A stretch of 64,000 nucleotides of DNA from Faecousia sp. (GTDB lineage Bacteria; Bacillota; Clostridia; Oscillospirales; Oscillospiraceae): assembly GCA_045537865.1 (NCBI GenBank), contig JAZSQH010000082.1, positions 3,360 through 67,359 of the forward strand, given 5' to 3'. Positions 1 to 55,807 of the stretch are shown here, in pieces; within the stretch, counting starts at the first letter, position 1; every line of letters starts with the position of its first letter. The notes under the pieces are model-generated. The model ran no database searches. It was given only the letters and a program-made list of their open reading frames with translations, and was not told the DNA's origin. Both the position numbers and the translations under genes were made by a program.

Positions 1-463
1 CCTCTCTCTGCCGCATCTGCGCTTTCATTTCGCCCTCGTCCAAGTGATCATAGCCCAGCAAGTGCAACATGGAGTGAATGGTTAAGTAACCGACCTCTCT
101 GCGTATACTATGCCCGAATTCATCCGCTTGTGCAATCGCTCTTTCCAGAGAGATCGCCATATCGCCCAGCGGGCATAAGCCGGTCTCCGGATCAATATAG
201 CCCGACCAATCCCGGGGCAATTTGCCCGCTTCAAACGGAAACATAGGAAAGCTTAAAACATCAGTTGCTTTGTCAATTTGCCGTGTATTTTTGTTGATTG
301 CTCTGATGTTTACATCATCAGTGACAAGAACGTTGATCTCGCAGGGGGCTGTTACACCCTCCATAGAAAGTGTTTGGCGAATGCATTTCTTAATTATGCC
401 GCTGATCATATACTGGTAAAGCGTAAATTCAGAAAAAGCCAGATTTATTTTTATATTACTCAT
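1..463 (-). CDS. ybeY: endoribonuclease YbeY (3' end runs off the window)
   Basis: Absent from the ORF track because it has no stop in the window. My minus-strand translation from the ATG at 463 gives MSNIKINLAF...TIHSMLHLLGYDHLDEGEMKAQMRQRE, which contains the YbeY HxxxHxxGxxH zinc motif. It overlaps the phoH stop by 8 nt, the usual phoH-ybeY order. Confidence 0.85.
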   Translation of the reverse strand, partial: MSNIKINLAFSEFTLYQYMISGIIKKCIRQTLSMEGVTAPCEINVLVTDDVNIRAINKNTRQIDKATDVLSFPMFPFEAGKLPRDWSGYIDPETGLCPLGDMAISLERAIAQADEFGHSIRREVGYLTIHSMLHLLGYDHLDEGEMKAQMRQRE

Positions 464-2655: not shown

Positions 2656-2659
2656 AACA

Positions 2660-2938: not shown

Positions 2939-3019
2939 ACCATCACTCCTTTTAGGTAGTCTATGTGATTTCAGGGATAATTTTTCCTTTTGGACATAGA
3001 TTCTTGTGAGGTGATCCGG

Positions 3020-4291: not shown

Positions 4292-6922
<2,631 letters not shown>

Positions 6923-13630: not shown

Positions 13631-13649
13631 AATCAACACTCCTTCATGT

Positions 13650-22718: not shown

Positions 22719-22744
22719 TACATCCTTTGGAAGGAGACTGGATT

Positions 22745-23788: not shown

Positions 23789-23803
23789 GGGGGGTGTTTG
23801 AAC

Positions 23804-38337: not shown

Positions 38338-41300
38338 GTGTCAGAACCTAAACTGATTTCGCCAATGCTTGACAATTTTGCAATGGGAGATCCAGTCAGC
38401 GAACACCACGGTGTGCGCTGCTGTCCCGCAATGGAAAACGAAACCGACGAGAAATATATCGTCAAAATTATTTCCACCCCGGCATCCCAAACCCAGGTTG
38501 AAGCATTGCTTCTTAGTGGCGCATTTGCAGACAATGATGCCGCTATGGCGTACTATAATGATATTGCGCAGAGTATCACCGAGGAAGCGCAGGTACTCCA
38601 AAAGCTCTCACAGCTGGAAGGATTTATGCCTTACGAAAGCTGGCAGATCGAACCTATAGACGAAGGCGTCGGCTATGATATTTACCTGCTTAGCCGTTAC
38701 AGAAAGACCTTGCAACGTTATTTTCAGCGTAACCCCATTACCCATTTAGGTGCATTGAACCTTGGTTTGGATCTGTGCGCTGCGCTGGCAGTATGCCGGA
38801 GAATGGGTTATATCTATGTTGACCTAAAGCCGGAAAATGTCTATCTGACCGACAAACTGGAATATCGGATCGGTGACATCGGCTTTATTAAGCTGGATTC
38901 TTTGAAATATGCATCTTTGCCGGAACGGTATCGCAGCGATTACACTGCGCCGGAAATCACGGATGCTTATTCTGCATTGAACAGCACCATCGATGTTTAT
39001 GCGTTGGGTTTGATTTTGTATCAGGCATTTAACAACGGCATTATCCCTGAAATATCTGCAGATAATAACAGTTCCCAGTTGCCGCCTCCTACCTATGCAG
39101 ACTACGAGATGTCTGAAATCATCCTGAAGGCCTGCGCAATGAACCCTGAGGATCGTTATCAGGATCCAATCGAAATGGGTCAGGCACTTGTCAGCTATAT
39201 GCAGCGCAATGGTGCGCATGACACCCCAATCGTCCCTCAGGCCGTAGTTGAAGAAGAACCTGCCGAAGACGAGACCGGTGTATACGAAGAAACACCCGTC
39301 GAAACAGATAGCGAACCCGAAACAACTGACGAAGAGCAGGAGGAATATATCCCGGTGGAGGAGGAAATCGCACCCACCGAGGAATACATTTTCACCGAGG
39401 ACGAGGAAGGCAACCTGACCGTTATCACCGAGGATTCTGAGGACGAAACTGCACCGGATCAGGAGGATGTAGCTGTTGACTACGAGGAAGTCACAGAGGA
39501 AGTTTCTGATATCCTCAATCAAGCCGACGAACTGATCGCCCACCCTGCCCCAGATCCCGTTGTGCAGCCGGAAGCCATCGAAGTCACACTTCCTGAAGTA
39601 TTGCCCGAGGAAGAAACAGAACAAGAATATGAGCAAGATGCAGATGGTGAAAATCTGACTGAGGAATCCGCAGAGGAATCTACCGAGGACACTGAGGACT
39701 CCGAGGATGCCGAGGACGCAGAGAAACAGCCCTGCGAACCTGCAGAGGAAGTAAACGATGCTGCGGAGAATGTAGAGGATGCGCCGACTGAGGAATCCGA
39801 AGCTGAACCTGAAACTAAAGTAGAATCCTCCGAGGATGTTACCCCCGTCAAGAAACGCGGCGGTAAAAAATGGTTGATCGGTGTGATCGTCGCTGTACTG
39901 GTTGCAGCCCTTGCAGTGGTTGGTTTCTTGTTCTATAAGAACTACTACCTGCAGGAAATTCAATCCATTGTCCTGGAAACCAGCGACAAGGGATCGCTGA
40001 CTGTTACAGTATCCAGCGATGTGGATGAGAACAAGCTTACTGTGATCTGCCTGGACGCCTATGGCAACCAGATCACTGCGCCTGTAGAGAACGGCAGAGC
40101 CGTGTTTACGGGATTGGCTCCTAATTCTGCATATACCATTAAAGTTGTGATCGGCGGTTTCCATCGCCTTACCGGCAATACCATCGCATCTTTCACAACC
40201 CCCCGGGAAACGCAGGTTGTGCAATTTCAGGCTGTTACCGGTTCTGAGGACGGAAGTGTGATCCTGAGCTTCACCGTTGAAGGCCCTGAATCCAACGAAT
40301 GGAACGTCAGCTACAGCTGTGCGAACGAGGAAGCAAAAGATGTTACTTTCTCAGGACGGATGGTTGCACTCACCGGTCTTACCGTTGGAAACGAATATAC
40401 ATTTACGCTGACTCCCATGGATGATATTACGCTGACCGGTTCTGTAACAACCACCTATACTGCAAGCAAGATCATCAAGGCAGAAGATCTGTTTATCATG
40501 GGTCGCGTTGATGGCAAACTGACAGCACAGTGGTCTGCACCCAGCGGCATTACCGTAAACAGCTGGACTGTTCGATGTTATAACGACAGCGGTTACGATC
40601 AGACCATCATTACCGAGCAACCGAATGCTGTATTCGAGGGTGTTGACAACTCAGCAGAATACACTGTAGAAGTCACAGCCGCCGGCATGAGCGTCAGCGA
40701 ACGTGCATTTGCTCCTGCGAACGCAATTAACGTCACCAACTTTTCTGTAGATAACAGTAATTCCAACAAATTAGTATTGTCCTGGAGTGCTGATACAGAA
40801 AGCGAATGGTTGCTGTACTATACCGTTGACGGCTATGCCGAACAGCAGGCAGAATGCAGCGATAACAATACTGCTATCGTCGACCTTGTTATCCCCGGCG
40901 GAACGTACAGATTTACACTGAAGGCTGAGAGCGTTGCTGCAGCATTTGGCGGCAATTTGATCTACACGGCTGCAGCTGCCGAAGCATTTGATAATTATGG
41001 TGTTTCCAAAGACGCCATGGAATTCATGATGTGTGAAACTCCCTCCTATTCCGACTGGGATCGTTGGGATCTGTCTGATTCTGACTACAGAACAGAGTTT
41101 GCTGTTGGCGAAAAAGCATCTTTTCTTGTCCATATAACGAACAAATATGGCGTTTCCTCGGACGAGATCGTAACGCTCTTTGCGATTCGGGATAGCAGCG
41201 GGAAATTGATCAGTGTTGATCAGCAGGTCGACACATGGCGCTCCATGTGGTATCGCAATTACGGTGAATTTGATCTGCCTTCCCTGCCCCAGTCCGCAGG

Positions 41301-41367
41301 AGAGTACATAGTCGAAGTATACTTTAACGGCGCATTGGCATGTTCCCAAAGTTTCACAATATCCTAA
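38338..41367 (+). CDS. membrane Ser/Thr-kinase-like protein with acidic linker and FN3-like ectodomain repeats
   Basis: GTG start 8 nt after AAGGAGG. Hanks subdomains are visible: YIVKII, YVDLKPEN at 38815-38838, DIG at 38875-38883, TAPE and DVYALG. An E/D/T-rich stretch of about 200 aa follows, then a TM segment and four FN3-like modules of about 90 aa. Confidence 0.6.
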   Translation: MSEPKLISPMLDNFAMGDPVSEHHGVRCCPAMENETDEKYIVKIISTPASQTQVEALLLSGAFADNDAAMAYYNDIAQSITEEAQVLQKLSQLEGFMPYESWQIEPIDEGVGYDIYLLSRYRKTLQRYFQRNPITHLGALNLGLDLCAALAVCRRMGYIYVDLKPENVYLTDKLEYRIGDIGFIKLDSLKYASLPERYRSDYTAPEITDAYSALNSTIDVYALGLILYQAFNNGIIPEISADNNSSQLPPPTYADYEMSEIILKACAMNPEDRYQDPIEMGQALVSYMQRNGAHDTPIVPQAVVEEEPAEDETGVYEETPVETDSEPETTDEEQEEYIPVEEEIAPTEEYIFTEDEEGNLTVITEDSEDETAPDQEDVAVDYEEVTEEVSDILNQADELIAHPAPDPVVQPEAIEVTLPEVLPEEETEQEYEQDADGENLTEESAEESTEDTEDSEDAEDAEKQPCEPAEEVNDAAENVEDAPTEESEAEPETKVESSEDVTPVKKRGGKKWLIGVIVAVLVAALAVVGFLFYKNYYLQEIQSIVLETSDKGSLTVTVSSDVDENKLTVICLDAYGNQITAPVENGRAVFTGLAPNSAYTIKVVIGGFHRLTGNTIASFTTPRETQVVQFQAVTGSEDGSVILSFTVEGPESNEWNVSYSCANEEAKDVTFSGRMVALTGLTVGNEYTFTLTPMDDITLTGSVTTTYTASKIIKAEDLFIMGRVDGKLTAQWSAPSGITVNSWTVRCYNDSGYDQTIITEQPNAVFEGVDNSAEYTVEVTAAGMSVSERAFAPANAINVTNFSVDNSNSNKLVLSWSADTESEWLLYYTVDGYAEQQAECSDNNTAIVDLVIPGGTYRFTLKAESVAAAFGGNLIYTAAAAEAFDNYGVSKDAMEFMMCETPSYSDWDRWDLSDSDYRTEFAVGEKASFLVHITNKYGVSSDEIVTLFAIRDSSGKLISVDQQVDTWRSMWYRNYGEFDLPSLPQSAGEYIVEVYFNGALACSQSFTIS

Positions 41368-41374
41368 ATTAAAT

Positions 41375-41403
41375 GAGGCAGCCATTTCGGCTGCCTCTTT
41401 TAT
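41375..41403 (+). terminator. intrinsic terminator after the kinase-like gene
   Basis: GAGGCAGCC/GGCTGCCTC 9-bp stem plus TTTTAT. Confidence 0.55.
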
Positions 41404-41431
41404 AACATTGTAATTATTCATATAAAAAAGC

Positions 41432-41460
41432 TTGCAATTAAAAAATAATGGTGATATAAT
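41432..41460 (+). promoter_or_regulatory. sigma-A-type promoter of the aromatic operon leader
   Basis: TTGCAA (41432-41437), 17 nt, TATAAT (41455-41460). Confidence 0.55.
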
Positions 41461-41492
41461 CACCCTATCAAGCCATTATGGAGGCCGAAATC

Positions 41493-41552
41493 ATGGTCAC
41501 TATGAACGTAGCACAGTTCTTTTTTGGCAACTATTACTTTTTTAACGGTTAA
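41493..41552 (+). CDS. candidate Phe/Tyr-rich leader peptide (19 aa)
   Basis: GGAGG (41480-41484) lies 8 nt before the ATG. My translation is MVTMNVAQFFFGNYYFFNG. It lies between a promoter and a terminator upstream of aroF. Confidence 0.5.
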   Translation: MVTMNVAQFFFGNYYFFNG

Positions 41553-41596
41553 AAGTAATAGCGTTTTGTGCTGCAATAAATTATTTTTGTCTTAAC

Positions 41597-41638
41597 ACCG
41601 CTGCACAGAATCGCATCTGTGCAGCGGTTTTTATTTTT
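41597..41638 (+). terminator. attenuator terminator upstream of aroF
   Basis: Perfect 13-bp stem ACCGCTGCACAGA/TCTGTGCAGCGGT (41597-41609 / 41616-41628) with a 6-nt loop, then TTTTATTTTT. GGAGG and the aroF ATG at 41654 follow. Confidence 0.7.
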
Positions 41639-41653
41639 CCTGGAGGTTACATT

Positions 41654-42655
41654 ATGATTGCCGTACTAAAAAGAGGAACAACCGACGAACAAAGAGATCA
41701 TCTGATCCAATGGCTCAACAGAATGAACCTGGAAGTACATATTTCCTCCGGTCAGGAAGTGACTGTACTGGGTCTTGTGGGTGACACAAGCCGTGTTGAC
41801 ATTGAACTGCTGAACAGCTTGGAGATCGTTGACAGTGTAAAGCGTGTTTCTGAACCTTATAAGCAGGTAAACCGCAAGTTCCATCCCAATGATTCCATCA
41901 TTCAGGTAAAGGATGTTGCTATTGGCGCCGGCAATTTTGCGATGATCGCCGGACCTTGCTCTGTGGAATCTGAGGAGCAGATCATTGAAGTTGCGGAAGC
42001 TGTGAAAGCTGCCGGTGCAACCATTCTGCGTGGCGGCGCATTTAAACCCCGCACCTCCCCTTACGCATTCCAGGGTCTTAAAGAGGAAGGTCTGCGCTTG
42101 TTGCTGGAAGCTAAAAAAGTAACCGGACTTCCTATCGTTACTGAGATCATGAACATCCGCACATTGGATTTGTTCGAGGACGTGGATATCATTCAGGTTG
42201 GCGCACGTAATATGCAAAACTTTGATATGCTGCAGGAGCTTGGCAAAACAAAGAAGCCCATTCTCCTGAAGCGTGGTCTTGCCAATACGCTGCAGGAACT
42301 TCTCATGAGCGCAGAGTACATCATGAGTGAAGGCAACGAAAATATCATTCTTTGTGAGCGAGGCATCCGTACTTACGAAACATATACCCGTAACACGCTG
42401 GATCTGTCCGCTGTTCCGGTGCTGCATGAGCTGACCCATTTGCCGGTAGTCGTCGACCCCAGCCACGCAACCGGTCGTTCCTCGCTTGTGCCCACTATGG
42501 CCGCTGCTGCCGCTGCCTGCGGCGCTGACGGTATTATGATCGAGGTGCATAACAACCCCTCTTGCGCATTGTGTGACGGCGCACAGTCCCTGACACCGGC
42601 ACAATTTGCGCAGGTCACCGAAACTGTTACTAAAATACGGGAGGCGATCCGATGA
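41654..42655 (+). CDS. aroF: 3-deoxy-7-phosphoheptulonate (DAHP) synthase, type I-beta with N-terminal regulatory domain
   Basis: 333 aa. An N-terminal extension of about 75 aa precedes the KDO8PS-like barrel (AGPCSVES, GAFKPRTSPY, VVDPSH). Confidence 0.85.
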   Translation: MIAVLKRGTTDEQRDHLIQWLNRMNLEVHISSGQEVTVLGLVGDTSRVDIELLNSLEIVDSVKRVSEPYKQVNRKFHPNDSIIQVKDVAIGAGNFAMIAGPCSVESEEQIIEVAEAVKAAGATILRGGAFKPRTSPYAFQGLKEEGLRLLLEAKKVTGLPIVTEIMNIRTLDLFEDVDIIQVGARNMQNFDMLQELGKTKKPILLKRGLANTLQELLMSAEYIMSEGNENIILCERGIRTYETYTRNTLDLSAVPVLHELTHLPVVVDPSHATGRSSLVPTMAAAAAACGADGIMIEVHNNPSCALCDGAQSLTPAQFAQVTETVTKIREAIR

Positions 42656-43482
42656 TCGTCGGAATTTTAGGTCTTGGACTCATTGGCGGCTCACTTGCCC
42701 GTGCATACACCAAGGCAGGCCACACCGTTTTGGCATATGATATTGATGCAGATATGTTGGCGTTTGCTCAGCTAGCCGGTGCGGTAAATGCTCCGATGGA
42801 CGAACGCAACATTTCAACATGTGAACTGATTTTGCTTTCTATCTACTCCGACGCTTCCGCCAGCTGGCTGGAAAATAACGCAAAATATATCAGCAGTAAT
42901 GCATTGGTGGTCGATTGCTGCGGAATTAAGGAGCGGATCTGTAACCGCTGCTTTCCCATAGCTGAAAAATACGGTTTTACATTTGTAGGCGGTCACCCAA
43001 TGGCAGGCTCCCACAACTCCGGTTTTAAGTACAGCCGCTCCAATCTGTTTCAGGGCGCACCTATGGTGCTTGTTCCGCCAAAATATGATGATCCGGAACT
43101 TCTGCAGCGTGTTAAGGATGCGCTTGCGCCTTGTGGTTTCAAGAGCTATTCCATAACCACTGCAAAACAGCATGACGAGATGATCGCCTTTACATCTCAA
43201 ATGCCGCATATTATCAGCAACGCCTTCATTAAATCCCCGACCGCAAGATCACACAAAGGATTTTCCGCCGGCAGTTACAAGGATCTGACACGTGTCGCCT
43301 GGCTGAATCCCCAAATGTGGGCGGAGCTGTTTCTATCAAACAAAGAGAACGTACTGAAGGAATTGGACACGCTGATCGAATCCCTTTCTCAGTACCGGCA
43401 AGCGATTGAATCGGACAACTTTGAACAATTAACATCCTTGTTGGCCGAAGGCAGAAAACGCAAAGAAGAGGTGGACGGATGA
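42652..43482 (+). CDS. tyrA: prephenate dehydrogenase
   Basis: Rossmann motif GLGLIGGS and the GGHPMAG motif. ATGA overlap with aroF. Confidence 0.85.
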   Translation: MIVGILGLGLIGGSLARAYTKAGHTVLAYDIDADMLAFAQLAGAVNAPMDERNISTCELILLSIYSDASASWLENNAKYISSNALVVDCCGIKERICNRCFPIAEKYGFTFVGGHPMAGSHNSGFKYSRSNLFQGAPMVLVPPKYDDPELLQRVKDALAPCGFKSYSITTAKQHDEMIAFTSQMPHIISNAFIKSPTARSHKGFSAGSYKDLTRVAWLNPQMWAELFLSNKENVLKELDTLIESLSQYRQAIESDNFEQLTSLLAEGRKRKEEVDG

Positions 43483-44531
43483 ATACCATTACAGTTTCAG
43501 CATCCAAAGATTATCAGGTTTTGATTGGAAACGGATTGCTGACAGATATTGGTCTTTATGCCAAAGAAATTTCAAAACCCGGAAAGGTCGCTATAATCAG
43601 CGATACCAATGTTTACCCCATATATGGCGCTACTGTACAGAAATCCTTGTCTGATGCCGGTTTTTCCGTATGCTCCTTTGTTTTACCTGCCGGTGAACAG
43701 AACAAAAACGGCGAGAATTATCTTTCCATTCTGGATTTCCTGGCAGAAAACAAAGTTACCCGTTCTGATCTGCTGATTGCATTGGGCGGTGGTGTTGTGG
43801 GTGATATTACCGGTTTTTCTGCCGCAACATTTCTGCGTGGTGTTCCCTATATTCAGATCCCCACTTCCCTACTGGCTATGGTGGATTCCTCTGTAGGTGG
43901 TAAAACCGCCATCGATCTGCCTGCGGGAAAGAACTTGGCTGGCGCATTTTATCAGCCCAGTTTGGTTTTATGCGACCTGGACACACTTGTCACTTTGCCG
44001 ACAGATTATTTTATCGACGGCTGTGCCGAGGTCATAAAATACGGAATTTTGTATGATGCCGATTTGTTTGCGCATTTATTGGAGAACGGTATCGCATTTA
44101 ACCGTAAAGACGTTGTCAGCCGCTGTGTTGCGCTGAAACGGGATGTTGTTGCCCATGATGAATTTGATCGAGGTGAAAGGCAAAAGCTGAACCTGGGTCA
44201 CACAATCGGCCACGCTGTTGAGCTAAGCAGCAACTTCGCCATATCCCATGGCAGAGCCGTTGCTATCGGTATGGCGATGGTGGCGAAGGCGGCAAATACA
44301 TTAAATGTCTGCGGTACAGAAACCTACCAAGCGATCCTTCAAATTCTGCAGAAATTTTCTCTGCCTTCAAATGCGGATATTACTGCCGAACAGCTGAACC
44401 AATGCGCACTTTCCGATAAGAAACGTGCCGGCGGTATCGTAAACCTGATTATTCCCCGGGAAATCGGCAACTGTGTAATTCAACCCACCCAGGTAACCGA
44501 ACTACTCTCATTTATTGAAGCAGGATTATAA
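43479..44531 (+). CDS. aroB: 3-dehydroquinate synthase
   Basis: LGGGVVGDITGF, a VDSSVGGKT-type motif and metal-binding His residues (GHTIGHA). ATGA overlap with tyrA. Confidence 0.9.
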   Translation: MNTITVSASKDYQVLIGNGLLTDIGLYAKEISKPGKVAIISDTNVYPIYGATVQKSLSDAGFSVCSFVLPAGEQNKNGENYLSILDFLAENKVTRSDLLIALGGGVVGDITGFSAATFLRGVPYIQIPTSLLAMVDSSVGGKTAIDLPAGKNLAGAFYQPSLVLCDLDTLVTLPTDYFIDGCAEVIKYGILYDADLFAHLLENGIAFNRKDVVSRCVALKRDVVAHDEFDRGERQKLNLGHTIGHAVELSSNFAISHGRAVAIGMAMVAKAANTLNVCGTETYQAILQILQKFSLPSNADITAEQLNQCALSDKKRAGGIVNLIIPREIGNCVIQPTQVTELLSFIEAGL

Positions 44532-44532
44532 C

Positions 44533-45729
44533 ATGGATATTACCATTACTCCCAGCGCCCTTTTTGGCGACATTACAGTTATCCCCTCAAAATCCCAGGC
44601 ACACCGACTTTTGATCTGCAGTGCGTTTGCTGATACCGTAACTACACTGCATTGTCCCTCTACAAATCAGGATATTGAAGCCACTGCAGACTGTCTGCGT
44701 GCCATTGGCGCTAAAATCGTAAAAACTGACGATGGCTACAGTGTTACACCCATATCGCAAATACCGAACAGCGCAACTCTGCCTTGTAAAGAAAGTGGCT
44801 CCACACTGCGTTTTATGCTGCCGATCGTCGGTGCCTTAGGTGTTGATGCCACATTTGTGCTGGAAGGCCGACTTCCCCAGCGCCCCTTGACGCCGCTGTG
44901 GGAGGAAATGGAACGAATGGGTTGTACGCTCACGCGTCCAACAGAAAGTACCATCCGCTGCCAAGGAAAGCTCAGTAGCGGCGTATACACCGTTGACGGC
45001 GGTGTTTCCAGCCAATTTATCACCGGTCTTTTATACGCAACCGCACTTATGGATGGTGACAGCAGGCTGCTGCTGACGGGTACGATTCAATCGCTGCCTT
45101 ATATCCAAATGACCCAACAAGCGTTGGAGGTCTTTGGTGTTCGCACGGATGATTTTAATATTCGTGGTAGCTATCCCTTTACAAGTCCCAAAACTGTTTA
45201 TGTTGAAGGCGACTGGAGCAACGGTGCATTCTGGCTGGCCGCAAATACTTTGGGTAGTTGTTTGGAAGTAACTGGTCTAAACGATAATTCGCTGCAAGGC
45301 GACAAAGCCTGCGCATCCATTCTGAAAAATATCCAAAATATCGACACAATCGATGCTGCGGACATACCGGATCTTGTTCCGATCCTTGCAGTGGTTGCAG
45401 GCAACAAAAAGAAACTCACATTTACAAATATCCAGCGGCTGCGGCTTAAAGAATCTGACAGAGTTGCGTCTGTAGCTGCAATGTTAGAAAATTTAGGCGC
45501 ATCTGTACATGTAACCGAAAGCGAAATGACCGTAATCCCAGCAGCATATCACAGCTGTACTATAGATTCAGCGGGCGATCATCGCATCGCTATGGCCGCC
45601 GCTATCGCTGCGACAGCAGCAGACGGAGCGGTTACGATTCTCGGTGCGCAATGCGTATCTAAATCCTACCCTGCCTTTTGGGATGAATACAAACGTTTAG
45701 GAGGAAAATATGAGCAGCACATACGGTGA
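44533..45729 (+). CDS. aroA: 3-phosphoshikimate 1-carboxyvinyltransferase (EPSP synthase)
   Basis: PSKSQAHR, LRLKESDR and GDHRIAMA motifs. ATG 44533 lies 1 nt after the aroB stop. Confidence 0.9.
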   Translation: MDITITPSALFGDITVIPSKSQAHRLLICSAFADTVTTLHCPSTNQDIEATADCLRAIGAKIVKTDDGYSVTPISQIPNSATLPCKESGSTLRFMLPIVGALGVDATFVLEGRLPQRPLTPLWEEMERMGCTLTRPTESTIRCQGKLSSGVYTVDGGVSSQFITGLLYATALMDGDSRLLLTGTIQSLPYIQMTQQALEVFGVRTDDFNIRGSYPFTSPKTVYVEGDWSNGAFWLAANTLGSCLEVTGLNDNSLQGDKACASILKNIQNIDTIDAADIPDLVPILAVVAGNKKKLTFTNIQRLRLKESDRVASVAAMLENLGASVHVTESEMTVIPAAYHSCTIDSAGDHRIAMAAAIAATAADGAVTILGAQCVSKSYPAFWDEYKRLGGKYEQHIR

Positions 45730-46795
45730 AGCATTGAAATTATCCGTCTTTGGTCAGTCTCATGGCGCAGCTATCGGCATGACTATGGATGGCATACCGG
45801 CCGGACTGCCGGTAGATATGGATAAACTGCAAAAGTTTCTGAATAGACGTGCGCCCGGACAAGGTGACTTCGCAACACTCCGTAAGGAAGCAGATGCGCC
45901 GGAATTTCTTTCCGGTCTTGTGGATGGCTATACTTGCGGCGCTCCCATTGCCGCAATTATCCGCAACGAGAACACCCGTTCCGGCGACTACGCAGAACTT
46001 AAAAACCGTCCTCGTCCCGGACACGCCGACTACACAGCACAGATCAAATACCACGGGTATCAGGACGCTGCCGGCGGCGGTCATTTCTCCGGCAGACTCA
46101 CTGCGGCAATCTGTATTGCCGGCGGTCTTTGCAAGCAGTGGCTGGAGATGAAAGACATCCGGATCGGTGCGCATATCAGCGTTTGCGCCGGTGTTGGCGA
46201 CGAACCCATATATCTGGATTGGGTTAAGCCGGAACTGGACAATATTCAAGGTGATTTCCCGGTACTTAATAAGGAAGCCGGTCAAAAAATGCAGGAAGCC
46301 ATCGCAGCAGCAAAAGCTGACGGCGACAGCGTGGGCGGTTTGATCGAATGTGTAGTAACCGGCTTACCGGCAGGCATCGGCGAGCCCATGTTTGGCGGCA
46401 TGGAGAGTAAAATCGCCCAGATCATTTACGGCATTCCGGCTGTAAAAGGCATAGAGTTTGGCAGCGGTTTTAGCGGCAGTTACCTGCGAGGCAGCCAAAA
46501 CAACGACTGCTACAGCTTTGAAGACGGCAAGGTAGTTACCCAGCGCAACTATGCCGGCGGCATTTTGGGCGGGATTACCAACGGTATGCCTTTAGTATTC
46601 CAGACAGCGATCAAACCTACCCCGTCTATTGCAATGCAGCAGAATACCATTGACCTGGAAACCGGTAAAGATACAACAATTCAAATTAAAGGGCGGCATG
46701 ATCCCTGCATCGTACCCAGAGCAGTCCCGGTCATTGAAGCAGCCGCTGCCATCGCTATCTACGATGCAATACTTCAGCAAAACAAGGAGAGATAA
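45710..46795 (+). CDS. aroC: chorismate synthase
   Basis: FGQSHG, RPGHADY, GGGHFSGR and GRHDPC motifs. Confidence 0.92.
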   Translation: MSSTYGEALKLSVFGQSHGAAIGMTMDGIPAGLPVDMDKLQKFLNRRAPGQGDFATLRKEADAPEFLSGLVDGYTCGAPIAAIIRNENTRSGDYAELKNRPRPGHADYTAQIKYHGYQDAAGGGHFSGRLTAAICIAGGLCKQWLEMKDIRIGAHISVCAGVGDEPIYLDWVKPELDNIQGDFPVLNKEAGQKMQEAIAAAKADGDSVGGLIECVVTGLPAGIGEPMFGGMESKIAQIIYGIPAVKGIEFGSGFSGSYLRGSQNNDCYSFEDGKVVTQRNYAGGILGGITNGMPLVFQTAIKPTPSIAMQQNTIDLETGKDTTIQIKGRHDPCIVPRAVPVIEAAAAIAIYDAILQQNKER

Positions 46796-46797
46796 TT

Positions 46798-47940
46798 ATG
46801 GAGCTGAGCGAATTGAGAAATAAAATTGACAATATTGACGCAGAATTAGTTCGGCTCTTTACTGCACGTATGGAAGTGGCTGCGCAAGTCGCTGACTACA
46901 AAAAAGCGAACAATCTGCCCATCTATGTGCCGGCAAGAGAGCGTGAGATCATGCAGGATGTGGCGGAAAAAGCTGGCCCTGAAATGGGTAATTACACCCG
47001 TGTTCTCTATTCGATGCTGTTTGAGCTGAGCCGCAGCTACCAGAGTAAGCGCAACACAGAGTATTCTGCGCTTTATAAGCGGATCAGCGATTCTATTGAA
47101 ACCACACCCAAGCTGTTCCCCCAGGCACCTATGGTAGCTTGTCAGGGTGTAGAGGGCGCATACGCACAGATCGCTGCGGAGAAAATGTTCAAAGCTCCCA
47201 TGATTATGTACTTCAAAAACTTCGATGCCGTATTTAATGCCATTGAGCAAGGCCTATGCCAGTACGGCATTTTGCCGATTGAAAATTCCACAGCAGGCTC
47301 TGTCAAGAAAATCTATGATCTGATGATCCACCATAATTTTTCCATCGTCAGAACATTCCGTCTAAAAATCGATCACAACCTCTTAGCAAAACCCGGTACA
47401 AAGGCAGAGGATATTACCCAGATTTTCTCCCATGAGCAAGCAATCAATCAATGTTCTGAGTTCTTGAAGCGCTTCCCCAACGCACAGATTATCCCCGTAG
47501 AGAACACCGCTGTCGCTGCCGAAATGGTTGCCAAATCTGATCGCAAAGACTTGGCTGCATTGGCAAGTCATGCTTGCGAGGAACTTTACGGATTGGAGTG
47601 TCTTGCTGCATCTGTACAGGACGAAGGTAACAATCGTACACGCTTTATTTGCATCAGCAAGAACCTGGAGATCTACCCCGGTTCTGACAAAACCAGCATT
47701 ATGATGATTCTCCCCCACAAACCCGGCGCATTGTATCGTGTGCTGGCCAGAATGTACACTTTGGGCATCAACGTCGTCAAGCTGGAATCCCGTCCCCTGC
47801 CGGATCGTGATTTCGAATTCATGTTCTACTTTGATCTGGAAACATCCATTTACTCTGAGGAGTTCATCCAACTGATGTGCGAACTGGATGATCTTTGTGA
47901 GGAATTTAAATACTTGGGAAGCTATACTGAGGTGGTTTGA
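46798..47940 (+). CDS. pheA: bifunctional chorismate mutase / prephenate dehydratase (P-protein)
   Basis: N-terminal AroQ-type CM helix (LRNKIDNIDAELVRL), a PDT core (PIENSTAGSV) and a C-terminal ACT (ESRP). Confidence 0.88.
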   Translation: MELSELRNKIDNIDAELVRLFTARMEVAAQVADYKKANNLPIYVPAREREIMQDVAEKAGPEMGNYTRVLYSMLFELSRSYQSKRNTEYSALYKRISDSIETTPKLFPQAPMVACQGVEGAYAQIAAEKMFKAPMIMYFKNFDAVFNAIEQGLCQYGILPIENSTAGSVKKIYDLMIHHNFSIVRTFRLKIDHNLLAKPGTKAEDITQIFSHEQAINQCSEFLKRFPNAQIIPVENTAVAAEMVAKSDRKDLAALASHACEELYGLECLAASVQDEGNNRTRFICISKNLEIYPGSDKTSIMMILPHKPGALYRVLARMYTLGINVVKLESRPLPDRDFEFMFYFDLETSIYSEEFIQLMCELDDLCEEFKYLGSYTEVV

Positions 47941-49166
47941 TGAAATGCGGCTTACTCGGTCGAAAACTGGGTCACAGCTATTCACCGCAAATACATAATT
48001 CCCTGGCAGATTACTCCTACGCTCTTTTTGAAAAAGAGCCGGCTGTTTTAGAAAGTTTTTTGCGTAATGAGGATTTTAACGGTCTGAACGTAACCATACC
48101 CTATAAAAAATCCGTTATCCCCTACTGCACTGAACTTTCGCCGGTCGCAAAGAAACTGGGCGCAGTGAATACCATTGTTCGCAAAGGTGACGGCAGCTTG
48201 ATTGGTCATAACTCAGACTATTACGGTTTTCAATATATGCTGAAAAAAAGCGGACTGTCGCCGAATAGTAAAAAAGTTCTCGTTTTAGGAAGCGGCGGCG
48301 CATCCGCAACGGCGGTAGCAGTTATGACAGAGCTCGGTGCTCAGGTTTATGTAATTTCCAGAAACGGCGAGCATAACTACGAAAACCTTTATCAGCATTA
48401 TGATGCGTCTATTATTCTAAATGCCACACCGGTGGGTATGTATCCTAACATCGACGAATCCCCTCTTAATTTGTCACCCTTTTCCAAACTTGAGGGTGTA
48501 TTGGATCTGATATACAATCCTGCCAGAACAGCCCTGCTTATGCAGGCTGAGAAGCGTGGTATTGTGGCAATCAACGGTCTTTGGATGTTGGTGGCACAAG
48601 CAAAAGAAAGTGCTGAATGGTTTACCGGTCACAAAATTGATGACTCTGTAATTCCGCAGGTCTACAACAAACTACAACGCCAAATGCTCAATATTATATT
48701 GGTTGGCATGCCAGGTTGTGGCAAATCTACCATTGGAAAAGCATTGGCAGCGCAACTTGGCAGAAAGTTTGTAGATGCAGATAGCGAAATTGAAGCTGCT
48801 GCAGGAAAGACAATACCGGAAATTTTTGCAGAATCTGCCGAGAACGGATTCCGTGAGATCGAAACAGCTGTTCTGAAACAACTGGGCAAGGAATCCGGTC
48901 TGGTGATCGCAACTGGAGGCGGATGTGTAACACGCAAGGAAAATTACCCGGCGCTGCATTGCAACGGTACCATCCTTTGGCTCACAAGGCCAATCAGCGA
49001 GTTGCCTACAGAGGGTCGACCTTTGTCCCAATCAAACAAACTGGAGGATATGTATTTGATTCGCAAGCCGCTGTATGAAGCGTTTGCTGATTATATCATA
49101 TCCAATAACCAACTTGCTGTAGATACAGTACAATCTGTACTGACAGCATTAGATATGGAGGCTTAA
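47937..49166 (+). CDS. aroE: fused shikimate dehydrogenase (N-terminal) / shikimate kinase (C-terminal)
   Basis: Residues 1 to about 255 are AroE-like (SYSPQIHN, GAVNT, GSGGAS). Residues from about 260 to 409 are AroK-like (Walker A GMPGCGKST, GGG). Confidence 0.85.
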   Translation: MMKCGLLGRKLGHSYSPQIHNSLADYSYALFEKEPAVLESFLRNEDFNGLNVTIPYKKSVIPYCTELSPVAKKLGAVNTIVRKGDGSLIGHNSDYYGFQYMLKKSGLSPNSKKVLVLGSGGASATAVAVMTELGAQVYVISRNGEHNYENLYQHYDASIILNATPVGMYPNIDESPLNLSPFSKLEGVLDLIYNPARTALLMQAEKRGIVAINGLWMLVAQAKESAEWFTGHKIDDSVIPQVYNKLQRQMLNIILVGMPGCGKSTIGKALAAQLGRKFVDADSEIEAAAGKTIPEIFAESAENGFREIETAVLKQLGKESGLVIATGGGCVTRKENYPALHCNGTILWLTRPISELPTEGRPLSQSNKLEDMYLIRKPLYEAFADYIISNNQLAVDTVQSVLTALDMEA

Positions 49167-49598
49167 ATGAATATACTGGTTATCAACGGACCGAATATCA
49201 ATATGCTTGGTATACGGGAGCCCGGCATTTACGGTGCAGAGAATTACGCAGCACTTCTGAAATTGCTGGATGATTGCGCCGCAGAACTTCATATTGATAT
49301 CGAGCATTATCAATCCAATCACGAGGGTGATTTAGTTGATAAGATTCAAGCTGCCTATGGAGTATTTGATGGCATAGTGATCAACCCTGCCGCATATACC
49401 CATACATCTATTGCGATTTTGGATGCACTGAAAGCAGTTTCTATTCCCGCAGTTGAAGTGCATATTTCCGATGTATCAGCACGTGAGGTGTTTCGTCAGG
49501 TCTCCTACGCAGGAATGGCATGTGTTAAGACGATTATGGGCATGGGAATCGCCGGCTACAAGGAAGCGTTATTATTCCTGAAAAATTATATTCAATAA
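49167..49598 (+). CDS. aroQ: type II 3-dehydroquinate dehydratase
   Basis: ILVINGPNINMLGIREPGIYG...QSNHEG...INPAAYTHTS. Confidence 0.92.
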   Translation: MNILVINGPNINMLGIREPGIYGAENYAALLKLLDDCAAELHIDIEHYQSNHEGDLVDKIQAAYGVFDGIVINPAAYTHTSIAILDALKAVSIPAVEVHISDVSAREVFRQVSYAGMACVKTIMGMGIAGYKEALLFLKNYIQ

Positions 49599-51633: not shown

Positions 51634-54164
51634 TACTTTGCCTCATACCAGCTTTTTCCCCACTTGGCCTCCGCCAACAAGGGCACACGTAGCTGCGCAA
51701 CTTTCTGCATTTGTTCACTGACCAAAGCAGCTACGGCCTCAGCATCACGCTCGGGACATTCCACGATCAATTCGTCGTGAACCTGCAACACGAGCTTAGC
51801 ATCGGGGTATTTTTCAGCTAATGCACTATGAACTCGCAACATTGCCAGCTTGATAAGATCCGCCGCAGAGCCTTGAATCGGCGTGTTCAGCGCAATTCTT
51901 TCCGCACCCTGACGAATATTGAAGTTGCTGCTTTTTAGCTCAGGAATATATCTGCGACGACCAAAAATGGTCTTGGTATATCCCATATCCGCCGCCTCCA
52001 GAACGACATGCTTCATATAGCTGCGAACTCCGCTGTAGTGGGCAAGATAGTTCTCAATATACCGCTTCGCCTCATACCGGCTGACACCAATATCGTCAGC
52101 CAAGGAGAATTCAGAGATACCGTATACAATACCAAAGTTGACCGCTTTTGCGTGTCTGCGCTGCAGGGGTGTTACATCCTCAGCAGCTGTATTGAACACC
52201 TGAGAAGCAGTCACAGTGTGAATATCAACACCGCTTACAAACGCATCCTGCATTGCCTGATCCTGGGCAATATGGGCAAGTACACGCAGCTCAATCTGGC
52301 TGTAGTCGGCATCCACCAGTACACAACCAGGTTTAGGAATAAACATCTTGCGAATTTCAGCGCCAAGATCAGTCCGCACGGGAATATTTTGCAGATTCGG
52401 CTCTGTAGAGGACAATCGACCAGTTGCAGTCACCAAATTCTGGAATGTGGTGTGGATACGTCCATCCTCGCAAATCACCTTCAAAAGTCCCTCGGCATAG
52501 GTGGAATTGAGTTTTGTCAGCATGCGGTAATCCATGATTGCAGGCACAATGGGATGCTGACTTTTCAGCTTTTCCAATACTTCTGCATTTGTGGAGTAGC
52601 CGGTCTTTGTTTTTCTCACCGGCGGCAGACCCAGTTTATCAAACAACAACTCGCCAAGCTGCTTCGTGGAATTAATATTAAAAGGTCCGTCAGAATAGGA
52701 GAATATCAACTTCTCACAATCGGCTATGCGCTGTGTCAGCATTTTACCAAACTGTTCCAGCTGTTCCCGGTCAATCGCTACACCGGTTTTCTCCATATCA
52801 TACAGAACGAAGCACAGCGGCAATTCCAATTCGTAATACAGTTTTTGCATACCCTGCTTGTTCAGTTCCTCCTCCATGACCGGCCGGAGATTCCAAAGCG
52901 CTTCTGCGCAGGCAGCAGCATCGCCGTCATCTACAGTTACACCTAGGAAATTCGTCGCCAGTTTGGAAACGGGATAATCCGACTGAGAGGCATTCAGATC
53001 ATAGGCCGCTAAAGCAGTGTCGAATATAAAATTGCCCTTATTAAGACCCATCTGATCCAAGCGGTGCAGAGTCAATTTCAGGTCGTGACAAATAACATTG
53101 GACACCTTAGGCAGAACGTCATCCAAATACATTGCCTCCATAGGGGTGACCATATAAACACCGTTGCACCAGGCAAAACCGATAGAGCCATCCGGAGCAA
53201 TATATAATGCACATGTGTCACAACAATCCGGCAACTGGCAGGCTTTCGGCAGGGGTTGACACTTTCGTTCACACGCCGGCGCTTCCAGTTCCATCCCGCG
53301 CAGGCCATATCTGTCGATCAGGCGCACAAACTCCAACCGAACAAACAACTGATAAAGTTCTTGCCGGTTATAGGGTCGGATCACCGCATCTGTGGGCGCA
53401 AAGTCAATGGGCGCAGTGGTACGAATCGTTGCAAGATCATAAGAAAGATATGCATTATCCTTCCCCTGCTCTAACTTTTCACGAAGCTTGGGTCGAATAG
53501 AGGGATCGTCCAGATTTTCATACAGACCATCCAAAGAGCCAAATCGCAGCAAAAGCTCCGTAGCAGTTTTTGGGCCAACACCGGCTACACCGGGAATGTT
53601 GTCAGAGGAATCACCCATCAAGGCTTTCAGATCCACCATCTTTTTCGGCTCAAAACCATATTCCTCTGTAAACGCAGGAACATCGTACAAAGTCGCAGTT
53701 GTCTGACCCATTCTGGAGATAACAAGCTTTACCTTAACATTTTCGTCGATCAGCTGCAGGCTGTCACGGTCGCCGGTTACAATTACACATTCCCATTCGC
53801 AGTTACTGCAAATTCTGCCCACTGTGCCGATCACATCGTCTGCTTCCCAACCCTGACACTCATAAATCGGGATATTCATAGCTTGCAGCACTTGCTTCAT
53901 TACCGGCATTTGCTGCGCCAGCTCCTCCGGCATTGCATGACGTGTCGCCTTATAGCCATCATATTGCAGGTGGCGGAAAGTCGGACCATGCAGGTCAAAA
54001 GCAACACAAACCGCATCCGGCTGTTCCTCTTTTTCCATACGCTCCAAAATATTCAAAAAACCATAGACCGCATGGGTATAAAGGCCGTCACGAGTAGTCA
54101 ACGGTTTTACGCCGTAAAAAGCCCGGTTGATAACGCTGTTACCATCCAGAATCAGTAATTTCAT
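51633..54164 (-). CDS. polA: DNA polymerase I
   Basis: 5' nuclease N-terminus (LILDGNSVINRAFYG) and pol motifs DYSQIELRVLAH and QVHDELIVE. Start at MKLLILD (ATG 54164), with an ATGA overlap with the cysS stop. Confidence 0.93.
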   Translation of the reverse strand: MKLLILDGNSVINRAFYGVKPLTTRDGLYTHAVYGFLNILERMEKEEQPDAVCVAFDLHGPTFRHLQYDGYKATRHAMPEELAQQMPVMKQVLQAMNIPIYECQGWEADDVIGTVGRICSNCEWECVIVTGDRDSLQLIDENVKVKLVISRMGQTTATLYDVPAFTEEYGFEPKKMVDLKALMGDSSDNIPGVAGVGPKTATELLLRFGSLDGLYENLDDPSIRPKLREKLEQGKDNAYLSYDLATIRTTAPIDFAPTDAVIRPYNRQELYQLFVRLEFVRLIDRYGLRGMELEAPACERKCQPLPKACQLPDCCDTCALYIAPDGSIGFAWCNGVYMVTPMEAMYLDDVLPKVSNVICHDLKLTLHRLDQMGLNKGNFIFDTALAAYDLNASQSDYPVSKLATNFLGVTVDDGDAAACAEALWNLRPVMEEELNKQGMQKLYYELELPLCFVLYDMEKTGVAIDREQLEQFGKMLTQRIADCEKLIFSYSDGPFNINSTKQLGELLFDKLGLPPVRKTKTGYSTNAEVLEKLKSQHPIVPAIMDYRMLTKLNSTYAEGLLKVICEDGRIHTTFQNLVTATGRLSSTEPNLQNIPVRTDLGAEIRKMFIPKPGCVLVDADYSQIELRVLAHIAQDQAMQDAFVSGVDIHTVTASQVFNTAAEDVTPLQRRHAKAVNFGIVYGISEFSLADDIGVSRYEAKRYIENYLAHYSGVRSYMKHVVLEAADMGYTKTIFGRRRYIPELKSSNFNIRQGAERIALNTPIQGSAADLIKLAMLRVHSALAEKYPDAKLVLQVHDELIVECPERDAEAVAALVSEQMQKVAQLRVPLLAEAKWGKSWYEAK

Positions 54165-55576
54165 ACTTTTCTCCATTTCGCACCCTGGGGGGTGTCAATG
54201 ATTTCAATTCCACGTGCTTTCAATTCATCACGGATACGGTCTGCTTCCGCATAGTTCTTAGCTTTCTTAGCTTCCGTACGTGCCGAAACCAATGCATCAA
54301 TTTCCGGGTCGGCATTGGCAGCCTCCTCCTGCGCCTGCTGCTCCTGCACTTTTTGGGCAGCGGCTATCAAATCGAGGCTCAACACCTTGTCGAAATCAGC
54401 CAGTGCAGCCAGCTTGGTGGCATCGTTTGTCTTTGCTTTCAGAACATCATATACGGCAGTGATCGCCAAGGAAGTGTTCAGATCGCCGTTCAGCGCATTA
54501 ACAAAACGCTCTTTCAAGGCATCAAATGCTGCCTGATCTACATCGCCATCATTTTTCAGTGCAGCAATCTTGCTGATGAGCTTATCGTAGGCAACCACAG
54601 CATTGTCAAGATTTTCCCAACTGAACACCAGGTTGCGTCTGTAATGGCTCTGCAGGCAGAACAGACGATATGCCATGGGATTATAGCCTTTCTGTTCCAA
54701 CAAGCTGACAGTCAGGAATTCACCCTTGGACTTGGACATTTTTCCGTCCTCGGTATTCAGGTGATGGACATGGAACCAATAATTACCCCACTTATGACCG
54801 ATAAAGCCCTCTGTCTGTGCGATCTCATTGGTATGGTGCGGAAACGCATTATCAATGCCGCCGCAATGGATGTCAAGATCCTGACCCAGGTGCTTCATGG
54901 AAATACCGGAACATTCAATATGCCAGCCGGGATAGCCAACACCCCAAGGAGAATCCCACTTCAGCGCCTGATCCTCAAATTTAGACTTAGTAAACCAAAG
55001 AACAAAGTCATTCTTGTTGCGCTTGTTGGTATCCTCCTCAACGCCCTCACGAACACCTATGCCCAAGTCTTCCTCGTCATGATCGTTAAAGATATAGTAC
55101 TTGCCAAGTTTTGCAGTATCGAAATACACATTACCGCCGGCAACATAGGCAAAACCCTTTTCAATCAGACCTTCTACCATCTGAATAAACTCCGGAATAC
55201 AGCCTGTAGCTGGCTCGACAACATCCGGTTTCTTAATATTCAGCTTATCACAGTCCGCAAAAAACGCATCGGTGTAATACTGGGCGATCTCCATAACGGA
55301 TTTATTTTCACGCTTTGCGCCCTTGAGCATCTTATCCTCTCCGGTGTCGGCATCCGATGCCAAGTGACCAACGTCAGTGATATTCATAACACGCTTGACG
55401 TTGTAACCCATGTAGCGAAGTGCCTTTTCCAGCACATCCTCCATGATATAAGTGCGCAGATTGCCAATATGGGCAAAATGGTAGACCGTCGGTCCGCAGG
55501 TATACATTTTTACAACATCCGGGGAATTGGGTTGAAAAAGCTCCTTTTTATGGCTTGCAGAATTATAAAGATACAT
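54161..55576 (-). CDS. cysS: cysteine--tRNA ligase
   Basis: HIGN (HIGH) and KMSKS motifs. Start MYLYNS (ATG 55576) lies behind AGGAGG. Confidence 0.93.
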   Translation of the reverse strand: MYLYNSASHKKELFQPNSPDVVKMYTCGPTVYHFAHIGNLRTYIMEDVLEKALRYMGYNVKRVMNITDVGHLASDADTGEDKMLKGAKRENKSVMEIAQYYTDAFFADCDKLNIKKPDVVEPATGCIPEFIQMVEGLIEKGFAYVAGGNVYFDTAKLGKYYIFNDHDEEDLGIGVREGVEEDTNKRNKNDFVLWFTKSKFEDQALKWDSPWGVGYPGWHIECSGISMKHLGQDLDIHCGGIDNAFPHHTNEIAQTEGFIGHKWGNYWFHVHHLNTEDGKMSKSKGEFLTVSLLEQKGYNPMAYRLFCLQSHYRRNLVFSWENLDNAVVAYDKLISKIAALKNDGDVDQAAFDALKERFVNALNGDLNTSLAITAVYDVLKAKTNDATKLAALADFDKVLSLDLIAAAQKVQEQQAQEEAANADPEIDALVSARTEAKKAKNYAEADRIRDELKARGIEIIDTPQGAKWRKV

Positions 55577-55603
55577 ATTCAGTCCTCCTGAAATCATTTT
55601 AAT

Positions 55604-55807
55604 AATAAAAAACACCTCTTGCGCCAAAGCACAAGAGGCGGGTCAGACAACTCGCGGTTCCACTCTCATTTATCACTCAAAAACGATTCGCTCAGGAACG
55701 CACTTTCCCTGCATAACACCTGTCCGGGCTTACAGCCAATGACCCCGACTCTCTGAAGGATAACAACAGCTACTCTTTTCCATCACAGCGATATTATTTG
55801 TTGTTAT
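55604..55807 (-). promoter_or_regulatory. T-box leader of cysS (candidate specifier UGC)
   Basis: On the minus strand: an AGAGAG box (plus 55749-55755), UGC followed by A (plus GCA 55711-55713), and the T-box AATGAGAGTGGAACCGCGAG (55651-55670). A terminator stem (55615-55638) plus TTTTTT follows. Confidence 0.8.

Follow-up and report, generated by a model that had tools for sequence, protein, structure and literature searches.

Attenuation by a translated leader peptide is the textbook example of coupling between transcription and translation and is regarded as mainly proteobacterial. For the Bacillota, T-boxes, riboswitches and proteins that bind RNA are regarded as the usual means instead. 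Here we describe a candidate for such an attenuator in a stretch of 64,000 nucleotides (nt) from Faecousia sp., a member of the Oscillospiraceae within the Clostridia (assembly GCA_045537865.1, contig JAZSQH010000082.1, positions 3,360 to 67,359). The whole stretch is called the window, and coordinates refer to it unless a related locus is named. The element in question, termed the aro leader (41432-41653, plus strand), lies directly upstream of aroF. Judged from its sequence, it most probably regulates the operon aroF-tyrA-aroB-aroA-aroC-pheA-aroEK-aroQ as a transcription attenuator of the ribosome-mediated, leader-peptide type, sensing charged tRNA-Phe and charged tRNA-Tyr; we put the probability of this reading at about 85%.

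The leaders pheL-pheA and trpL of Escherichia coli (RF01859 and RF00513) share with the aro leader an open reading frame (ORF) that places the regulatory codons in segment 1, the alternative pairings 1:2, 2:3 and 3:4, and an intrinsic terminator before the first structural gene. In these leaders, as in the aro leader, the terminator is more stable than the antiterminator, which implies kinetic control. An initial annotation, made from the window sequence alone, had placed the locus in the pheL and trpL type. This assignment agrees with the mechanism proposed here and fails as to membership in the Phe_leader family, whose model RF01859 reached 18.0 bits (E = 1.4) against a gathering score of 55 and was rejected. 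In contrast to pheL and trpL, with which it shares neither sequence nor structure homology, the aro leader is hosted by a member of the Clostridia (Oscillospiraceae) and not by a proteobacterium, mixes phenylalanine (Phe) and tyrosine (Tyr) codons instead of using those of a single amino acid, and governs the whole common pathway together with the Phe and Tyr branches. Its segment 1 is moreover bipartite (1a and 1b), with 1a similar to the terminator arm. A search of the window against Rfam at the gathering thresholds assigned the leader to no family, and at E ≤ 10 the region 41350-41700 yielded sub-threshold noise only (the trpB motif at 24 bits, snoRNA and miRNA models).

Phe and Tyr codons in a leader peptide before an aroF-containing operon are also known from aroR of Corynebacterium glutamicum. 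As summarised in PMC11802643, a leader peptide with the residues Phe-Tyr-Phe precedes the aroF operon there, and its stalling raises transcription, with experimental support (Neshat et al. 2014). According to the same summary, aroR differs from the aro leader in its actinobacterial host, in having three aromatic codons against seven, and in that Tyr was reported to be without effect. A further precedent for the gene association is uORFC-13-1, a candidate upstream ORF (uORF) known from Acholeplasma and from environmental sequences and located exclusively 5' of aroF (Brewer et al. 2021; PMC8632094). It comprises 24 representatives, among which all named organisms are Acholeplasma, and consists of a promoter, a ribosome-binding site, a start codon, a U-run coding for Phe and an intrinsic terminator immediately 3'. 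Its peptides are described as containing "at least one phenylalanine", and Tyr codons are unmentioned (PMC8632094). Compared by description only, the aro leader fits this outline, being a uORF with a Phe-coding U-run, located 5' of aroF and followed by a terminator. Unlike uORFC-13-1 as described, it spans at least 64 species of Clostridia and has an explicit, tested antiterminator. Set side by side in this way, the two may form one family or separate ones.

Leader peptides with other specificities have been reported within the Firmicutes. His leader peptides were predicted in the Bacillus cereus group, the Peptostreptococcaceae and the Erysipelotrichales (PMC2965389, PMC9413887), and the ilv-leu operon of Staphylococcus aureus has a Leu-rich attenuator peptide with genetic support (PMC5794164). 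Ribosome-mediated attenuation is thus not excluded from the Bacillota. Unlike the aro leader, these systems involve other amino acids, operons and lineages; none is aromatic or belongs to the Oscillospiraceae. The initial annotation had called leader-peptide attenuation an unusual solution for Firmicutes. Its statement that three T-boxes lie in the same window holds, but the case is less unprecedented than it implied, since leader peptides had already been predicted or shown in the phylum. T-boxes (RF00230) resemble the aro leader in derepression at low charged tRNA and in an output through terminator and antiterminator. Whereas a T-box reads uncharged tRNA directly and requires no translation, the aro leader has a translated ORF rich in Phe and Tyr and no T-box features, and RF00230 had no match in 41350-41700 even at E ≤ 10.

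Leader peptide and alternative RNA structures

The elements of the aro leader and their mutual exclusivity were established in the analysis, as were their conservation and covariation. The promoter (41432-41460, plus strand) was recognized by direct reading and by a promoter scan. It consists of the -35 box TTGCAA (41432-37), a spacer of 17 nt and the -10 box TATAAT (41455-60); the scan revealed in addition a TG at 41452-53, which results in an extended -10 element (TGaTATAAT, 41452-60). Transcription would start near 41467. A Shine-Dalgarno (SD) sequence, GGAGG (41480-41484, plus strand), is located 8 nt 5' of the ATG at 41493. The leader ORF (41493-41552, plus strand) has 19 codons, encodes MVTMNVAQFFFGNYYFFNG and ends with TAA at 41550-52. 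Its regulatory codons are FFF (41517-25) and YYFF (41532-43). The last 11 codons contain five Phe and two Tyr, and tryptophan (Trp) is absent from the ORF. Apart from the TG, this promoter, SD sequence and peptide had been listed in the initial annotation, and direct reading returned each of them at the same coordinates.

The end of the leader (41550-41561) contains three in-frame stops, TAA AAG TAA TAG. The peptide of the window is two codons below the family norm because most relatives stop at the second of them (the TAA within GTAATAG). In the minimum free energy (MFE) structure, a hairpin formed by 41476-81/41500-05 and 41483-86/41495-98 occludes the leader's own SD sequence and ATG (41476-41505). 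This hairpin could modulate translation of the leader.

Segment 1b (CUAUUACUUUU, 41531-41541, plus strand) consists of the Tyr-Tyr-Phe-Phe codons and is the 5' arm of a perfect hairpin of 11 base pairs (bp). The 3' arm, segment 2b (AAAAGUAAUAG, 41551-41561, plus strand), overlaps the stop codon and has two more in-frame stops inside. Direct reading and folding agreed with the initial description of this hairpin, and folding showed that the complete first hairpin is bigger than described. Segment 1a (GUAGCACAG, 41508-41516, plus strand), which comprises the Val-Ala-Gln codons, pairs in the MFE structure with UUGUGCUGC (41566-74) of segment 2a, and 41526-28 pairs with 41563-65. The result is a composite 1:2 hairpin of 23 bp. 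By these additional pairs the whole segment 2 would be sequestered when the ribosome is absent. Segment 1a is similar to the 5' arm of the terminator (GCUGCACAG).

Segment 2a (GCGUUUUGUGCUGC, 41561-41574, plus strand) is the switch segment. Together with 1a and 41526-28 it forms an anti-antiterminator, and together with segment 3 the antiterminator. Segment 3 (41597-41615, plus strand) comprises the 5' arm (41597-609) and the loop (41610-15) of the terminator, of which positions 41600-14 join segment 2a in the antiterminator. The 2:3 pairing put forward initially (41561-71/41603-14; 11 bp with one bulge and one G-U) folded as predicted, with two pairs more (41573-74/41600-01). Segment 4 (41616-41638, plus strand) comprises the 3' arm of the terminator (41616-28) and the U-tract TTTTATTTTT (41629-38). 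A terminator scan confirmed the 13-bp stem (41597-609/41616-28) and the subsequent U-tract that had likewise been noted before.

The leader as a whole folds with an MFE of -54.6 kcal/mol (z = -5.55), and none of 200 dinucleotide shuffles folded equally well. The comparison of folding energies suggested in the initial annotation gave -20.6 kcal/mol for 1:2, -18.7 kcal/mol for 2:3 as duplex (-15.3 kcal/mol as hairpin) and -24.8 kcal/mol for 3:4. At every simulated stall site within the Phe/Tyr run, positions 41560-75 remained free in the folding.

Conservation and covariation among relatives

Relatives were retrieved by an AroF protein search with one genome per species, which resulted in 80 loci with AroF identities of 63-84%. 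Their labels are mostly Faecousia, Oscillospiraceae, Acutalibacteraceae, Ruminococcaceae, Christensenellaceae or unclassified Clostridia. The upstream sequence was sufficient for counting leader ORFs at 77 loci, and 65 of these have a short ORF that starts with ATG, contains at least five Phe/Tyr per eight residues and ends about 80-110 nt 5' of aroF. The same pattern occurred at 0 of 77 loci on the reverse strand and in 1 of 385 dinucleotide-preserving shuffles. Comparable enrichment of any other amino acid or amino-acid pair was absent from the same 77 upstream regions. The initial annotation had suggested aligning these regions and had named a lack of conservation of the ORF or its aromatic codons as evidence against attenuation; the opposite was found, with the Phe/Tyr run kept and the stems changing in a compensatory manner.

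Small ORFs (sORFs) with at least six Phe/Tyr per eight residues number 65 in 831 kb (both strands), and 62 of them are located directly 5' of aroF. The leader peptides, 1470 residues in total, consist of 19.9% Phe, 18.2% Tyr and 0.1% Trp, in line with the earlier argument that a leader with Phe and Tyr but without Trp fits an operon with pheA and tyrA but without trp genes. Phe/Tyr codons number seven in the leader of the window and up to 11 in those of relatives. Outside the run, length and sequence of the peptides vary widely (e.g. MTTMNVAAQFYFGYYYFFTHKK, MSKLLSYTTSYFYFFNYYFFSKSSSDLCCKKV and MSRNYFTAYFYFYFRS). Among 66 related leaders, 53 have an SD-like motif, and 59 have a promoter-like TTGnnn-16..18-TAnnnT within 90 nt 5' of the leader ATG, the latter being a count without a control set.

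A strong intrinsic terminator follows 64 of the 66 leaders and ends 15-55 nt 5' of aroF; the two apparent exceptions do have terminators, which were missed by the strict scan. For the antiterminator, a ribosome was placed in the middle of the Phe/Tyr run and the free downstream RNA was paired with the 5' arm and loop of the terminator, using 200 shuffles as reference. The 2:3 duplex was better than the shuffles (p ≤ 0.05) at 54 of 64 loci, with a median z of -3.1. An earlier version of this test, which considered only the RNA 3' of the stop codon, gave 41/64 and was unfair where the ORF reads through segment 2. Terminators, significant 2:3 pairing and compensatory stems together support the initial reading of the alternative hairpins as an attenuator.

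When nascent RNA lacking segment 4 was folded with a stalled ribosome, segment 2 captured at least 60% of the terminator arm at 60/64 loci. In ribosome-free folds, segment 1 sequesters segment 2 at 47/64 loci, and the Phe/Tyr run is at least 50% paired at 52/64. The full MFE structure retains the complete terminator at 62/64 loci. The energy of the 1:2 duplex compared with shuffled spacers gave a weak signal (19/64), and folding and pair counts were used instead. At all 64 loci the leader stop lies at most 16 nt 5' of segment 2, within segment 2 or beyond it; in the window, masking by a ribosome at this position merely weakens 2:3.

The RNA core 3' of the Phe/Tyr run (AAGUAAUAGCGAUUUGUGCUGCAA) is conserved while its frame varies, containing a stop in some species and being read as ..SNSDLCCK.. 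in others. This argues for selection on the RNA in the core and on codon identity in the run. In relatives, segment 1a consists of Ala-Ala-Gln codons (GCNGCACAG) and is similar to the terminator arm GCYGCACAG, a likeness that is to be expected if the two are competitors for segment 2a.

Among the 29 closest relatives, pairing reaches 85.8% in the terminated fold, compared with at most 54% for slid partners, and compensatory changes affect eight of the 13 terminator pairs. For the 2:3 helix the corresponding values are 81.9% and at most 61%, and the core of this helix is invariant. MAFFT misaligns the loops in this closest-clade alignment, and 2:3 was addressed by swaps across clades and by a loop-complement test. 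A covariance model built from the closest sequences and applied at E ≤ 1e-5 yielded 46 confident matches (E-values 1e-8 to 1e-26), all of them directly 5' of aroF. Seventeen are outside the seed, and the window holds a single copy. Matches of the model on the minus strand represented palindromic hairpins read backwards and were dropped at this threshold.

The alignment of the 46 sequences contains 23 pairs changed on both sides; shuffles gave 14.8 ± 1.8, and 0 of 500 reached 23. Compensatory changes affect 11 of the 13 pairs in the terminator stem. The 1a:2a helix is 74.6% paired, with four pairs changed on both sides. The 1b:2b hairpin is 97.4% paired, and a replacement of Tyr by Phe (TAT to TTT) is matched there by ATA to AAA in the opposite arm.

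The swap and loop-complement tests are independent of the alignment fitted to the structure. The pairing of segment 2 with the terminator arm of the same locus averages -16.6 kcal/mol, compared with -8.9 kcal/mol for arms of the other sequence class, and at the dissimilar loci of the other class the cognate combination is equalled by just 25 of 197 non-cognate ones. In 17 of 46 sequences the cognate terminator loop contains the exact complement of the 5' tetranucleotide of segment 2, compared with 5.1% of non-cognate pairs, and 0 of 5000 permutations reach the observed value. GCGA/TCGC, GTAA/TTAC, GAAA/TTTC, GTGA/TCAC and GCAA/TTGC are among the combinations seen. Were the hairpin nothing more than a terminator, its loop would not be expected to follow changes in an upstream segment in this way.

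An Rfam search of the 12 loci without a leader found nothing, which indicates that the leader was not swapped for a T-box there. Among the leaderless loci, L040 and L049 have aroF inside an operon, and some represent true Bacteroidaceae with different upstream regions. At locus L034, the region 5' of aroF (about 4860-5000) contains the promoter-like sequence TGGTATAAT and a core-type terminator (GACGCTGCACGAATGACTCGTGCAGCGTC plus T-run) and no Phe/Tyr ORF; it may be a decayed or re-purposed leader. Loci L041, L042, L048, L057 and L058 are labelled Bacteroidaceae; most such loci have AroF identities of 66-69% and no leader. L050, also labelled Bacteroidaceae, has the Phe/Tyr leader MNNNSAYFFYFYFTRRFAG and a terminator, and L037 (labelled Treponemataceae) has one too. 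Either gene transfer or mis-binned contigs may account for these two. Six distant leaders (L059, L066, L075, L078, L079 and L080) are devoid of an SD sequence and have a -10-like box about 7 nt 5' of the ATG (e.g. TATACTTTAGCTATG), which suggests that these peptides are translated from leaderless mRNA.

Proposed mechanism and rival explanations

In the proposed mechanism, transcription would begin near 41467 and a ribosome would start on the 19-codon leader. If Phe or Tyr is scarce, this ribosome would stall in FFF (41517-25) or YYFF (41532-43) and cover segments 1a and 1b, leaving segment 2 (41551-74) single-stranded. Segment 2a would capture segment 3 (41600-14) once this is made, the 5' arm of the terminator would be withheld and the polymerase would read through into aroF. 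With an ample supply of both amino acids, the ribosome would reach the stop and leave, and a leader without any translation would have the same fate: the 23-bp 1:2 hairpin would form, 3:4 would pair and transcription would terminate at the U-tract (about 41638) with a transcript of roughly 170 nt. From the architecture we infer the stalling itself, a ribosome that keeps pace with the polymerase and a kinetic choice between the structures. The mixture of Phe and Tyr codons plausibly constitutes an OR gate, by which one leader would answer a shortage of either product of the operon.

Several observations weigh against this mechanism. At equilibrium, the full-length leader folds to the terminator irrespective of the region masked, and segment 3 pairs with segment 2 even in the ribosome-free fold when segment 4 is left out. 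With a ribosome at the stop codon of the window, the 2:3 energy of -18.7 kcal/mol shrinks to a value between -14 and -11 kcal/mol, so that the pairing is weakened and not abolished. A conserved U-rich pause tract after 1:2 was not found; 17 of 46 sequences have a T-run of at least four. Under the definitions used, significant 2:3 pairing is missing at about 10 of 64 loci. The key helices are nearly invariant in the closest clade, so that support for 2:3 by covariation is weak to modest there, and the alignment of 46 sequences was fitted to the structure of the model, which favours that structure. Here the slid controls, with at most 54% paired, argue that the covariation signal is real despite the fitted alignment. 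The relatives are all metagenome-assembled genomes. Lastly, transcription in the Bacillota has been classed as "runaway", with polymerases that run ahead of the ribosomes (PMC13323073, PMC7858274).

Because equilibrium folding does not separate the states, the attenuation model relies on co-transcriptional kinetics. The decision must be kinetic and dependent on the preformed 1:2 hairpin. In the trp leader the decision is likewise kinetic.

That equilibrium energetics alone do not account for switching would also be in keeping with a factor-dependent switch, in which the RNA core GUAAUAGCGAUUUGUGCUGCAA is bound by a protein, tRNA or small ligand that selects one of the structures, and the Phe/Tyr ORF is incidental or secondary. 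The conservation of this core across families exceeds the strict needs of base pairing, and the known amino-acid leaders of Firmicutes are mostly T-box or protein-dependent, with three T-boxes in the window itself. However, the excess conservation is explicable by three overlapping constraints, namely codons, 1:2 pairing and 2:3 pairing, and the Phe/Tyr run persists in distant clades with a wholly replaced RNA core (L059, L063, L075, L079 and L080). In every case the run shares its frame with a start ATG and a stop codon, and mostly an SD sequence precedes it (53/66); neither the T-box nor any other Rfam model obtained a meaningful score at E ≤ 10. As to a protein of the TRAP type, TRAP of B. 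subtilis needs about 9-11 (G/U)AG triplets spaced by 2-3 nt. Just three GAG/UAG triplets are present in 41467-41640, irregularly spaced, and a TRAP-type leader was rejected. Overall, a factor-dependent switch appears improbable.

Still less credible is a functional, aromatic-rich small peptide, for example one with a membrane or signalling role, encoded ahead of a hairpin that is nothing but an ordinary leaky terminator before aroF. In favour of such a peptide are the conservation of the ORF, its good SD sequence and promoter, and the fact that hydrophobic sORFs are common in bacteria. Nonetheless, beyond the Phe/Tyr run neither the length nor the residues of the peptide are conserved, and the frame varies 3' of the run while the RNA is conserved. 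Nearly all copies of the sORF precede aroF, or else a transporter of the aromatic type, and a segment 3' of the ORF covaries with the terminator loop, which is unlike a simple terminator. TTT and TAT codons are likelier in an AT-rich intergenic region, but the idea that a T-rich sORF and hairpins coincide here by chance is effectively refuted by the 65/77 loci against 1/385 shuffles and 0/77 reverse strands, the shuffle controls for 2:3 pairing and for covariation, the MFE z-score of -5.55 and the model matches at E-values of 1e-8 to 1e-26, all 5' of aroF.

For ribosome-mediated attenuation, the mechanism and even the gene association have precedents. What appears new is the family itself, its breadth in gut Clostridia, the dense codon run for two amino acids and the covarying antiterminator. 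We tentatively suggest, at slightly less than even odds, that the aro leader represents an uncatalogued and phylogenetically broad RNA family of at least 64 species (gut Oscillospiraceae, Acutalibacteraceae, Christensenellales and related Clostridia), acting as a two-amino-acid OR-gate leader over aroF operons, duplicated aroF paralogues and an aromatic-type ABC transporter. The covariance model and the alignment could seed an Rfam family.

Conservation of such a family would imply that the first ribosome dependably keeps up with the polymerase for about 100 nt at the start of the transcript, in a phylum classed wholesale as "runaway". An attenuator conserved in dozens of species of gut Clostridia would be a natural and well-defined test of coupling at leaders. 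A single leader of this kind could merge two amino-acid signals, which a single T-box cannot. The analysis annotates a regulatory element in abundant, uncultured gut bacteria and predicts that their synthesis of aromatic amino acids responds to the supply of Phe and Tyr. For the specialist, it would be an expected mechanism in a less expected place, with no new principle.

The aro operon, other targets and T-boxes

The gene upstream of the aro leader is a Ser/Thr-kinase-like ORF of 1009 amino acids (38338-41367). It ends in its own terminator, located by the terminator scan at 41375-41397 (plus strand), and the aro leader hence opens a separate transcription unit. Downstream, the SD sequence of aroF (GGAGG, 41641-45) and its ATG (41654) are both located 3' of the leader terminator (plus strand), and direct reading thereby confirmed the order given initially.

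The regulated operon as a whole extends from 41641 to 49598 on the plus strand. Its genes were assigned by NCBIfam matches as aroF (41654-42655), tyrA (42652-43482), aroB (43479-44531), aroA (44515-45729), aroC (45710-46795), pheA (46798-47940), aroE-aroK (47937-49166) and aroQ (49167-49598), all on the plus strand. The product of pheA is a chorismate mutase/prephenate dehydratase. The composition named in the initial annotation, that is the common pathway together with pheA and tyrA, was borne out by these matches, and NCBIfam annotation of the downstream ORFs revealed no trp genes in the aroF operon. The aroE-aroK gene (47937-49166) is one ORF of 409 amino acids, with shikimate dehydrogenase at residues ~1-245 and shikimate kinase at ~250-405.

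Additional copies of the leader were detected in other contexts. A metagenome scan with a fixed-spacer pattern of the core, which is too strict to gauge prevalence, yielded five more copies, four of them before aroF and one before an ABC transporter. At locus L082, a leader (3310-3351, minus strand) and a terminator precede ABC transporter genes (2166-3197, 877-1833 and 90-884, minus strand). The binding protein is TrpX-like with 211 bits, which is below the cut-off of 390. From its sequence, this transporter is probably an uptake system for aromatic amino acids in the same regulon. The targets of the leader would thus span aromatic synthesis and uptake, the set that a sensor of Phe/Tyr starvation should control. 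Locus L080 contains two divergent aroF operons, the second being aroF-tyrA-aroB, with leaders at 3519-3575 (minus strand) and about 4848-4908 (plus strand). Both operons carry their own Phe/Tyr leader, segment 2 and terminator, and one of the leaders is an extra sORF beyond the 62 counted directly 5' of aroF.

The three T-boxes mentioned in the initial annotation were found again. The T-box before valS (11192-13666) is located at 13671-13877 (minus strand) and is above the Rfam gathering score. Those before pheS-pheT (22703-26188) and cysS (54161-55627), at 22473-22697 (plus strand) and 55631-55795 (minus strand), respectively, are below it, with 78 and 56 bits against 93 and E-values of 3e-15 and 2e-9. 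The genome has T-boxes on tRNA synthetase genes, with direct reading of tRNA-Phe in the case of pheST, yet a translated Phe/Tyr leader on its aro biosynthetic operon.

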